A stretch of 64,000 nt of DNA from Escherichia phage EP75: sequence record MG748547, one strand, 5' to 3'. Under the pieces are notes generated by a model, which saw nothing but the letters and a program-made list of their open reading frames with translations, ran no database searches and was not told where the DNA came from. This document shows positions 48,532 through 49,857 of this stretch, in pieces. The number at the start of each line of letters is the position of its first letter. Position 1 is the first letter of the stretch. Both the position numbers and the translations under genes were made by a program.

Positions 48532-49857
48532 TCAATCAGGGGTAAACTCGTTCACAGGAACTTGTTCCGGCATAGACAATTCGGGGCATGCTGCCTTCAT
48601 TGACTCAATATATGGCTTGCTACCCACAATCCAGAACAGAGTATTTTCGTTGAGCAGTTCTGGCTTATGCTGTTGGATCCAGGTCATGACCTTGCCTTCA
48701 TAGCGTGGATGCAGCTCAATATCGCCCCACTGATAATCCATCAGGTCATTATAGCGAACCCAATTCGTTGTGTGTAAATCCCAATGGTGTACTGCAAAGC
48801 GTGGGAGCGTTATCTCCGGCTCTCCCTTCTCGCGGATACCCATCAGGAGGCCAGCCAGCGAAACGCTCTTAGAGGCATGCTGAAGATCCTTCTTGCCGTA
48901 CACATAATCTGGGTTGTCGTGATAGCAACGAGTGAAATCCGTTATGTGTGGAAGATTAGCTTGTTTTCCAATAACACGCAAACGGCTTTCAATAAAGTCC
49001 AGACGGTTGGGACCAATCCCGATCAGATATACATTTTTCAGATTCGGTTTCGGGTGCATAGCCAGCCCTGTCAAAATGCTGGTACAAGAATTACATGAAC
49101 CCGCAGGAATGATCAGATCTGTGATATGGTCCGGAATGTTAGCAACCTGCTCGCCGCCCAGCATATGGAATCCTGCAATTCGCTCCGGAGAATGCAACGT
49201 ATGATCCAAAGTGATCCCATATTCTAGATAATATGCTTTTGGATTCTGCTGCTCAATCAATTTCTTGCAGCGCGGTTGGATAGTGCTGTTGTAACCCGAA
49301 CCGACGAAGTTGAATTCGCTGCCGAACCATGCACTCATCTTAACCATATCGTGGTTCATACAGGTGGTTGGTTTGGTCGCGCCCAGGACTGTAGTTGTCT
49401 TGCCGCCAAAATGCCGAGAGACTGCCGTCGCCATAGGGGACTGCGGACTACCAACAACAGTGCCATGGATAAGGTCGGGGGAGCCTCCGACCTTGAGGTG
49501 CTCAACCATCAGCCAGATGGCCTGACGCAATTTACTACCATTGATCCCCTGCTTACCATTCATATAACAAGACAGCGGCGCGAAGTAATCTTCACGTTTG
49601 AACCAGACCTGCTGATTGGTTTCGGGGTTGGCAACGAGTTCGCACGGGGTGTGTTTGTAGAGGTAGTCTTCCCAGTGAATGATATTTCTATCAAGTGAGA
49701 GAGCATTGAAGATTGTTTTACGCCCTGCCATAAGGGCGTCAGGGGTATATGGGGCAAAGATGATACCTTCTTTCGCCATCTCTTCTTTTAGAGTAGTGGC
49801 CAAGAGTTCTTCCACTTCTTCACCGTGTAAAATTTCTTGTTCGGATGTAGGCTTCAT
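48532..49857 (-). CDS. PLP-dependent enzyme, fold type II (ACC deaminase / D-cysteine desulfhydrase-like)
   Basis: 'WFKREDY...GINGSKLRQA' (KRDDL...GGNKxRK pattern) and 'IHGTVVGSPQSPMATAVS'. Confidence 0.55.
   Translation of the reverse strand: MKPTSEQEILHGEEVEELLATTLKEEMAKEGIIFAPYTPDALMAGRKTIFNALSLDRNIIHWEDYLYKHTPCELVANPETNQQVWFKREDYFAPLSCYMNGKQGINGSKLRQAIWLMVEHLKVGGSPDLIHGTVVGSPQSPMATAVSRHFGGKTTTVLGATKPTTCMNHDMVKMSAWFGSEFNFVGSGYNSTIQPRCKKLIEQQNPKAYYLEYGITLDHTLHSPERIAGFHMLGGEQVANIPDHITDLIIPAGSCNSCTSILTGLAMHPKPNLKNVYLIGIGPNRLDFIESRLRVIGKQANLPHITDFTRCYHDNPDYVYGKKDLQHASKSVSLAGLLMGIREKGEPEITLPRFAVHHWDLHTTNWVRYNDLMDYQWGDIELHPRYEGKVMTWIQQHKPELLNENTLFWIVGSKPYIESMKAACPELSMPEQVPVNEFTPD

Follow-up and report, generated by a model that had tools for sequence, protein, structure and literature searches.

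In Salmonella phage ViI (Vi01), the hypermodified nucleoside 5-(2-aminoethoxy)methyl-2'-deoxyuridine (5-NeOmdU) was reconstituted from lysates expressing gp67, gp160, gp226, gp243, and gp247, and gp226 was listed as the pyridoxal 5'-phosphate (PLP) enzyme found only in phages that hypermodify thymidine (Lee et al. 2018 PNAS, PMC5889632). The order of the steps was dissected subsequently (Lee et al. 2021/22 NAR, PMC8989533). 5-Hydroxymethyl-2'-deoxyuridine (5-hmdU) in DNA is first phosphorylated by kinases, gp247 (aGPT-Pplase2, an amino-acid:DNA transferase, AADT) swaps the phosphate for L-serine via the side-chain oxygen to give O-serinyl-thymidine (O-SerT), and purified gp226 decarboxylates O-SerT to a nucleoside of 301 u, which is identical to native 5-NeOmdU. 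In purified form gp226 is yellow and absorbs at 410-425 nm; labelling with 13C3,15N-serine revealed the loss of one carbon, and when gp226 was left out of the lysate mixture serine was still attached, giving a nucleoside of 345 u, 44 u heavier (PMC8989533). Based on a Phyre2 alignment to 1j0a, Lys92 (K92) of gp226 was proposed to be the lysine that forms the aldimine (PMC8989533). The pathway genes are conserved across the Ackermannviridae, with about 40% of T replaced (PMC11721090). Here we describe a gene in a 64,000-nucleotide stretch of Escherichia phage EP75 (record MG748547; this whole stretch is called the window below), whose product very probably carries out the final step of the 5-NeOmdU pathway in ViI-like (Kuttervirus) phages, as judged from its sequence and the genes around it.

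A homolog of gp226 from Pseudomonas phage M6, gp52, is a PLP-dependent C-alpha-glycinyl-thymidine decarboxylase of the 5-(2-aminoethyl)-2'-deoxyuridine (5-NedU) pathway (PMC8989533). Compared by its published description, gp52 resembles gp226 in that it decarboxylates a DNA-tethered amino acid whose alpha-amine must be free, and differs in that its substrate is a C-C linked glycine made by a radical S-adenosylmethionine isomerase and in that its gene lies in a tightly clustered operon. No publication on gp226 itself was found after the 2021 NAR paper.

Relationship to ViI gp226 and predicted fold

The features of the gene that bear on its assignment are as follows.

48532..49857, minus strand: predicted PLP-dependent O-serinyl-thymidine (DNA) decarboxylase gene, ortholog of ViI gp226 / Vi01_182 (from the list of open reading frames, ORFs; ATG start, 441 amino acids)
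49531..49533, minus strand: codon of Lys109 (K109), the predicted PLP (internal aldimine) lysine, equivalent to ViI K92 (alignment offset 17)
49720..49857, minus strand: lineage-variable N-terminal extension, residues 1-46, outside the conserved core (from the alignment, the PHROG profile start at residue 46, and the megablast start at nucleotide 139)

The counterpart in Vi01 is the coding sequence Vi01_182, noted as 'orf00226', whose protein, YP_004327553, is ViI gp226. Orthology, the conserved lysine, the assignment to fold type II, and the presence of the kinase and transferase genes described below were established computationally in this work, and the reaction itself is taken from the ViI ortholog. 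Protein alignment showed that residues 47-441 of the EP75 protein (395 of 441 residues aligned) are about 99% identical to gp226 and that K109 corresponds to K92. The gene neighbourhood is the same: a tRNA block, a tail-needle-knob gene, one ORF, and then gp226 follow one another in both phages, and the polymerase, gp243, and gp247 genes lie nearby. The two proteins differ in length (424 residues in ViI and 441 here), and the first 29 residues of the ViI protein are unrelated to the first 46 of this one. Megablast of the gene and of the whole window placed the window in the genus Kuttervirus (Ackermannviridae); it is 95-99% identical at the nucleotide level to Kuttervirus genomes, and in the flanking 25-kb blocks the identity to other Kutterviruses is 95-98%. 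The gene itself shares 99.2% nucleotide identity with those of Salmonella phages Se-H, Se-I, Se-J, and Se-N, 97.9% with that of bering, and, from query nucleotide 139 onward, 95.4% with that of Vi01; at the protein level, it does not differ from Se-H (100% identity).

The family is widespread. The protein matches PHROG 3650 (E 1e-239, the profile spanning residues 46-441), which is labelled 'unknown function' in the PHROG library and is also found in many metagenomic phages, and 685 homologs were detected at E<=1e-3 in a large protein collection. Matches by tblastn were found in 345 phage records, among them about 60 Vibrio phages and representatives of every Ackermannviridae genus sampled. 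Such an enzyme had been called unusual in phages in the preliminary description of this gene, a statement that this conservation contradicts. Relatives carry a variety of names in GenBank and UniRef, including 'putative threonine ammonia lyase', 'threonine deaminase', and 'ACC deaminase/D-cysteine desulfhydrase-like', and many are called 'hypothetical protein'; the threonine ammonia-lyase name is an annotation carried over from Limestone. One 747-residue homolog (P0089), about twice the usual length, is 42% identical over 89% of the query and presumably belongs to the kinase-PLP(-AADT) fusions to which Lee et al. 2021 had drawn attention.

The assignment to the fold-type II PLP superfamily, made earlier from two peptide strings (FKREDYFAPLSCYMNGKQGINGSKLRQA and GTVVGSPQSPMATAVS, both present verbatim in the 441-residue ORF), was borne out by the family profile and by structure prediction. 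A single-sequence phmmer search against the sequences of the Protein Data Bank (PDB) matched nothing relevant, and the family profile was needed: with it, 1-aminocyclopropane-1-carboxylate (ACC) deaminase 1rqx (E 8.6e-6) and D-cysteine desulfhydrase were matched. In this alignment, 'ginGsklRq' falls on 'fgGNKtRK', 'ksPQlpm' on 'iQSNQtr', and 'HPrYeGK' on 'DPVYEGK', so that K109, the lysine of GINGSK, lies on the GGNK lysine of ACC deaminase (1rqx/1f2d). K109 is invariant in 30 homologs of 40-95% identity, in agreement with its earlier designation as the PLP lysine; K87, R88, D90, N106, G107, R111, S137, P138, Q139, G253, N256, and Y386-E-G-K389 are invariant across the same homologs. The AlphaFold model has a mean predicted local distance difference test score (pLDDT) of 87.6 and a predicted template modelling (TM) score of 0.85, and is weak only at residues 1-46 and in a loop at 321-350. 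Foldseek gave 297 PDB matches at E<=1e-3, and the best 50 of these 297 are all fold-type II proteins. D-cysteine desulfhydrase, ACC deaminase, and the 1j0a homolog were the best matches (probability 1.0, E about 1e-10; 7e-11 for D-cysteine desulfhydrase and ACC deaminase), and serine/threonine dehydratases and cysteine synthases ranked after them. The protein is thus predicted to be a fold-type II PLP enzyme of the D-cysteine desulfhydrase/ACC deaminase type.

Compared with the known structures of that type (1rqx, 1f2d, 1j0a, and 4d8t), the model shows the same fold, with a target-normalised TM score of about 0.67, and the PLP lysine motif G-x-N/G-x-K, the Q-S-x loop, and the C-terminal Y-E-G-K can all be aligned, whereas sequence identity is only 13-16%. 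The gp226-type protein carries, in addition, an extra N-terminal segment and an insertion of about 60 residues (295-358). The chemistry also differs: ACC deaminase and D-cysteine desulfhydrase act on free amino acids, by ring opening or by elimination at C-beta, while the gp226 family decarboxylates a DNA-tethered amino acid, which is an unusual reaction for fold type II. One detail of the first reading did not hold: the stretch GSPQSP, taken at first for the glycine-rich loop, is the counterpart of the GGxQSN substrate loop (the Q-S-x loop) of the ACC deaminase subfamily. By analogy with fold-type II enzymes in general, the phosphate-binding glycine-rich loop is more likely to be 'PAGSCNS' (residues 251-257), which contains the invariant G253 and N256.

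Outside this core, residues 1-46 were modelled with one helix, at pLDDT values of 43-76. The 441-residue form is also present in Salmonella phages bering, Se-H, and Se-J. At the nucleotide level at least three variants of this segment occur among Kutterviruses, with megablast identity starting at nucleotide 1, 93, or 139 depending on the phage, and the segment looks like a mosaic, lineage-specific extension.

The predicted pathway in EP75 and rival chemistries

Orthologs of two further enzymes of the ViI pathway were identified in the window, together with other genes of nucleotide and DNA metabolism.

39963..40868, minus strand: 5-hmdU DNA kinase, ortholog of ViI gp243 (Pfam HMUD2, E 7e-150; 86% identical to gp243)
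37971..39206, minus strand: amino-acid:DNA (serine:DNA) transferase, AADT, ortholog of ViI gp247 (Pfam ADDT, E 2.5e-57; 91% identical)
41183..42025, minus strand: NT5C/HAD-type 5'(3')-deoxyribonucleotidase-like gene between the polymerase and kinase genes, a putative part of the nucleotide-pool context (Pfam NT5C, E 2e-7; annotation of relatives)
13343..13864, minus strand: dCMP deaminase
42363..45461, minus strand: family-B DNA polymerase (Pfam DNA_pol_B and DNA_pol_B_exo1)

The kinase, HAD, and dCMP deaminase genes on which the preliminary description had drawn are therefore all present. The 'MazG-like' gene that it added, at 24453..25031, is so annotated in relatives and had no Pfam match at E<=0.001. 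The broader proposal, a post-replicative thymidine hypermodification pathway acting on 5-hmdU, is borne out by the orthology of the PLP enzyme to gp226 and by the gp243 and gp247 orthologs.

From the biochemistry of ViI, the following route would be expected. 5-hmdU, supplied by a thyA-like dUMP hydroxymethylase, would be built into DNA at replication and then phosphorylated within the polymer by a 5-hmdU DNA kinase (gp243 or gp67), after which the gp247 ortholog would replace the phosphate by the side-chain oxygen of free L-serine to form O-serinyl-thymidine. On the PLP enzyme, the free alpha-amine of the serine tethered to DNA would then take the place of Lys109 by transimination to give an external aldimine, and the alpha-carboxylate would leave as CO2, so that the aminoethoxy group remains. 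We infer that the DNA of EP75 probably carries 5-NeOmdU. From the joint presence of the gp226, gp243, and gp247 orthologs, modification of roughly 40% of EP75 thymidines and resistance of the DNA to many restriction enzymes are predicted (PMC11721090).

Several points weigh against this assignment. The first 46 residues are completely unlike the start of ViI gp226, and their divergence may affect activity. The Pfam PALP family (PF00291) is matched over residues 68-293 with 30 bits (E 4.4e-7), and its gathering cut-off of 35 bits is not reached, so that membership in the superfamily rests on the profile and fold results. In addition, the dUMP hydroxymethylase, the second kinase gp67, and gp160 are all outside the 64-kb window. 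In ViI, the thyA-like gene, Vi01_060c, adjoins gp67 and is situated about 3 kb beyond the primase-helicase gene at which the window begins; from this synteny, we infer that a thyA-like dUMP hydroxymethylase is probably present in EP75.

Two other chemistries were weighed against decarboxylation of DNA-tethered serine. The preliminary description had proposed a beta-replacement enzyme. By a TrpB/CysK-like mechanism, an aminoacrylate derived from serine would be coupled to 5-hmdU in DNA, making this protein the amino-acid-installing step. The fold-type II superfamily does contain such enzymes, and SbnA and O-acetylserine sulfhydrylases were among the Foldseek matches. However, these matches are weaker (E 1e-7 to 1e-6) than those to ACC deaminase and D-cysteine desulfhydrase, and in ViI it is gp247 that installs serine on 5-phosphomethyl-2'-deoxyuridine (5-PmdU), while gp226 acts later, on O-serinyl-thymidine in DNA, and removes exactly one carbon (PMC8989533). 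The attachment of serine in the mixture that lacked gp226 argues in the same direction, and beta-replacement by this protein is considered highly improbable. For the same reason, 5-hmdU DNA incubated with serine, PLP, and the PLP enzyme alone should yield nothing, because gp247 attaches serine to kinase-phosphorylated 5-hmdU. Alternatively, the protein might be a small-molecule enzyme that acts on free amino acids and reshapes host pools, as a threonine ammonia-lyase (deaminase) or an ACC deaminase/D-cysteine desulfhydrase would. The database names of the relatives favor this reading, and the fold is nearest to D-cysteine desulfhydrase and ACC deaminase. Those names, however, derive from weak similarity, at the low identity to known structures given above and without a PDB match from the single sequence, and the threonine deaminases TdcB and IlvA rank under D-cysteine desulfhydrase and ACC deaminase (E about 1e-6 compared with 7e-11). 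Moreover, the PLP gene is accompanied by 5-hmdU kinase and AADT genes in phages of unrelated background, and a DNA substrate was demonstrated for the ortholog (PMC8989533). A role on free amino acids is accordingly regarded as scarcely credible.

The decarboxylase function of gp226 is already known. The step that the preliminary description had left as a candidate has been reconstituted, first from lysates (2018) and then with purified protein (2021), and the practical value of the present assignment lies in a corrected annotation for relatives that are labelled 'hypothetical protein' or 'threonine ammonia lyase'.

Two further genes of the window were noted alongside these. A 101-residue DUF7254 protein (40868-41173, minus strand; E 7.5e-48), called 'putative thioredoxin' in relatives, is encoded between the NT5C-like gene and the 5-hmdU DNA kinase gene, a position that is kept in Kuttervirus and Miltonvirus. 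A 220-residue protein (16193-16855, minus strand) has weak N-terminal matches to QueC/ThiI, limited to the PP-loop ATPase signature (E 4e-5), and is annotated as 'QueC-like queuosine biosynthesis' in relatives. Outside the Kutterviruses, a 158-kb contig of a metagenomic T4-like phage (L012) encodes, at 7873-12790, a Tet_JBP oxygenase, a methyltransferase-like protein of 255 residues, a PLP enzyme, an AADT, and P-loop kinase 3, with gp45 clamp and clamp-loader genes about 2 kb past these hypermodification genes (14735-16859). In this locus a TET-based route to 5-hmdU is combined with tailoring enzymes of the same kinds, here beside clamp genes; such TET-based routes are a class noted in PMC8989533.

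A peptide shared by the polymerase and the modification enzymes

The ~60-residue insertion of the PLP enzyme contains a short loop motif that recurs at the C-termini of other proteins encoded in the window.

48838..48867, minus strand: internal loop motif of the predicted decarboxylase, S331-VSLAGLLM-G340, a putative clamp-binding-like docking peptide in the low-confidence loop of residues 321-350; loop peptide stretch KSVSLAGLLMGIR
42366-42404, minus strand: extreme C-terminus of the polymerase, RRVNLLSMMGKKG, with the same motif (RRVNLLSMMG); tail peptide KRRVNLLSMMGKKG
39966-40001, minus strand: C-terminus of the kinase, SSVSLLGLLSKG, which contains SVSLLGLL
37974-38006, minus strand: C-terminus of the transferase (AADT), TSVNLMSLLKR; tail peptide STSVNLMSLLKR
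3249..3452, plus strand: small ORF of 67 amino acids that ends KGKINLLNMMRK (…INLLNMMRK), best match in the window to the polymerase tail; its ortholog is Vi01_049c (…KVNLLSLMRK)

The common motif can be written S-V-[SN]-L-x-[SG]-[LM]-[LM], and is internal in the PLP decarboxylase and C-terminal in the polymerase, the kinase, and the transferase. In a six-frame translation of the 64 kb, the pattern [SN]L[LMA][SG][LM][LM] occurs only four times, in the decarboxylase loop and in these three tails. The loop, disordered and exposed as judged from the model, has pLDDT values of 45-58 in a model that is otherwise above 90, with a short helix at 334-339, and many homologs lack this inserted segment. 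In a non-circular test, only the polymerase core VNLLSMM was used as the seed, and each of the 343 ORFs of 60 amino acids or more was scored over its C-terminal 14 residues. Among the 342 ORFs other than that of the polymerase, the best were the 67-residue ORF (score 28), the transferase (24), and the kinase (17), and the next ORF scored 14. When the kinase tail SVSLLGLL was used, its best non-self match in the window was the decarboxylase loop, with 7 of 8 residues identical and a score of 29 that was reached by none of 20000 shuffles of the decarboxylase. The small ORF matches no Pfam family, is located in the replication-gene region, and may encode a further partner of whatever binds the motif. 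In ViI, gp160, an AADT paralog (Pfam HMUDK_hel), also ends in …GSVNLLDRLKKPE. A tail of similar appearance was observed in a protein annotated as baseplate/tail-tube (ViI Vi01_066; 41929-42873 in L008), which ends …SEKSSLLGLLQDVVKN and resembles the kinase tail SSVSLLGLL; this likeness may be due to chance, or the motif may not be confined to DNA-acting proteins.

Comparison of Kuttervirus, Miltonvirus, Nezavisimistyvirus, and Vibrio phage D533 revealed that the peptide co-varies between the polymerase and the other carriers across these four lineages; besides the window, the motif was noted in loci L005, L006, L007, and L012. The tails and loops of three phages are given below.

phiMAM1: polymerase tail KRVNLLSMMGKR; kinase tail SSNLLAMLLRNKK; AADT tail KSVNLLSMLGGKK; PLP-enzyme loop NTNVMHLLFS
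Bue1: polymerase tail RRVNLMAMLKK…; kinase, no close copy; AADT tail SNNLLSLFGR; PLP-enzyme loop KAKNLLDIMKAG
Vibrio phage D533: polymerase …ARKLW; kinase …TKKLW; AADT …TRKLW; PLP-enzyme loop KTRRLFGG

The gp160-like protein of D533 ends …TKRLW. Within the 41 kb of D533 that were searched, the polymerase, the kinase, AADT2, and the gp160-like protein are the only ORFs that end in L[WF], and the PLP-enzyme loop holds the only other [KR][KR]L[WF] tetrapeptide. In L012, the transferase ends …SRNILEFME and the loop reads ETNVLDFS. Other family members carry PIP-box-like [LI]xx[FY][FY] strings, or LFG or LWG strings, in the same loop. Of two further metagenomic loci, L011 has no polymerase or AADT within reach, and L013 has a polymerase tail, KKVNVLKFFK, that is only loosely like its PLP-enzyme loop, TNKLWG.

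The closest parallel is found in T4-like phages. The highly similar, hydrophobic C-termini of gp43, gp55, and gp33 are established sliding-clamp-binding epitopes of T4, and the RB69 clamp was co-crystallised with the last 11 residues of the polymerase (PMC2988020). The T4 tails read KASLDFLFG in gp43 and SPSLDFLYEAND (SPSLDFLY) in gp55. In the Kuttervirus polymerase tail, the [SN]-L-x-x-[LM]-[FM]-G spacing of T4 gp43 recurs; the Kuttervirus peptides RRVNLLSMMG, SVSLLGLL, SVNLMSLL, and SVSLAGLLMG were compared with the T4 tails under the wider pattern [SN]-L-x-x-[LM]-[FML]-(G). In both systems a short hydrophobic C-terminal peptide of a family-B polymerase is common to other DNA-acting proteins. 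The carriers, however, are DNA-modification enzymes here and transcription factors in T4, and the peptide is internal in the PLP enzyme; T4 alpha-glucosyltransferase has no such tail. A gp45-like clamp is encoded in ViI by Vi01_135c, outside the region that corresponds to the window (Pfam gp45-slide_C, E 3e-4, under the cut-off).

On the most economical reading of these likenesses, the polymerase tail would be the clamp-binding peptide, and gp243, gp247, gp160, and gp226 would be recruited to new DNA by the phage sliding clamp via copies of it, a proposal to which we give an even chance. The loop peptide of the PLP enzyme would dock on the gp45-type clamp, as the kinase and the transferases would, and modification would trail the fork. 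The PCNA-DNMT1 interaction is known in eukaryotes, and by analogy with it the arrangement suggests a clamp 'tool-belt' for DNA base hypermodification. No mention of a clamp or replisome link for these hypermodification enzymes was found in the papers searched, and the shared polymerase-tail motif is apparently an unreported observation.

The motif might instead serve another purpose, as a degron for timed proteolysis, as a contact for another partner such as the single-stranded DNA-binding protein or the helicase, or as a peptide through which the enzymes assemble with one another into a modification complex on the polymerase. Such a reading gains from the residues that flank the motif, which are basic here, in contrast to the acidic T4 clamp-binding tails (PMC2988020), and from the tail-tube-annotated protein, which ends KSSLLGLLQDVVKN. 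It also gains from ViI gp33 and gp55, whose T4 counterparts bind the clamp and which have no clear copy; no convincing copy was seen in ViI gp67, RNase H, the ligase, or the clamp loader either. The basic flanks and the missing copies are at the same time the points that count against docking on the clamp, and the missing copies leave the parallel with T4 incomplete. On the other side, the extreme C-terminus of a T4-like family-B polymerase is precisely the site of the clamp-binding peptide in T4 and RB69 gp43, with the same spacing, and these phages encode gp45-type clamps. The internal loop copy speaks against a strictly C-terminal degron. Taken together, a function other than clamp binding is judged possible, if somewhat improbable. 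Clamp binding by the motif, if real, would account for the delivery of four or five sequentially acting enzymes to the nascent duplex, and deletion or exchange of the peptide would offer a simple handle for tuning modification density in engineered phages.

Gene boundaries and transcriptional context

The boundaries of the gene and of its transcription unit were read from the following elements.

49865-49869, minus strand: Shine-Dalgarno sequence AGGAG, read from the sequence, 7 nucleotides 5' of the ATG at 49857
47523..47549, minus strand: strong bidirectional hairpin terminator that closes the minus-strand unit holding the PLP gene (11-bp stem with 6 GC pairs, followed by a T-run)
51482-51504: second terminator-like site, upstream of the unit that holds the PLP gene

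The 441-residue start is credible because AGGAG precedes the first ATG and no such sequence precedes Met43; the internal Met43 was considered as the true start and rejected on these grounds. The GC content of the gene is about 0.46, and its base composition is ordinary. The gene is part of a minus-strand run between the hairpin terminators at ~51.5 kb and ~47.5 kb, some members of which are annotated as structural in relatives. Its placement in a 'late block', as first described, is unsupported, since expression timing is not derivable from the sequence: a search for T4-type late promoters (TATAAATA) gave 1 match in 64 kb where 1.8 were expected, and a search for sigma-70-like promoters in the window gave fewer promoter-like sites than expected from shuffles.

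Upstream of this unit, the tRNA block (51918-52733, minus strand) was resolved by ARAGORN into Tyr-GTA, Asn-GTT, and Met-CAT; in relatives it is also annotated with a tRNA-Ser and an odd 144-nucleotide 'tRNA-OTHER', neither of which was called here. Directly downstream of the PLP gene, the product of 48043-48492 (minus strand) matches Pfam ART-PolyVal, the ADP-ribosyltransferase of polyvalent proteins (E 1.6e-10), and DUF3990. It is annotated as a virion structural protein in relatives (from Limestone), and may be an injected ADP-ribosyltransferase.

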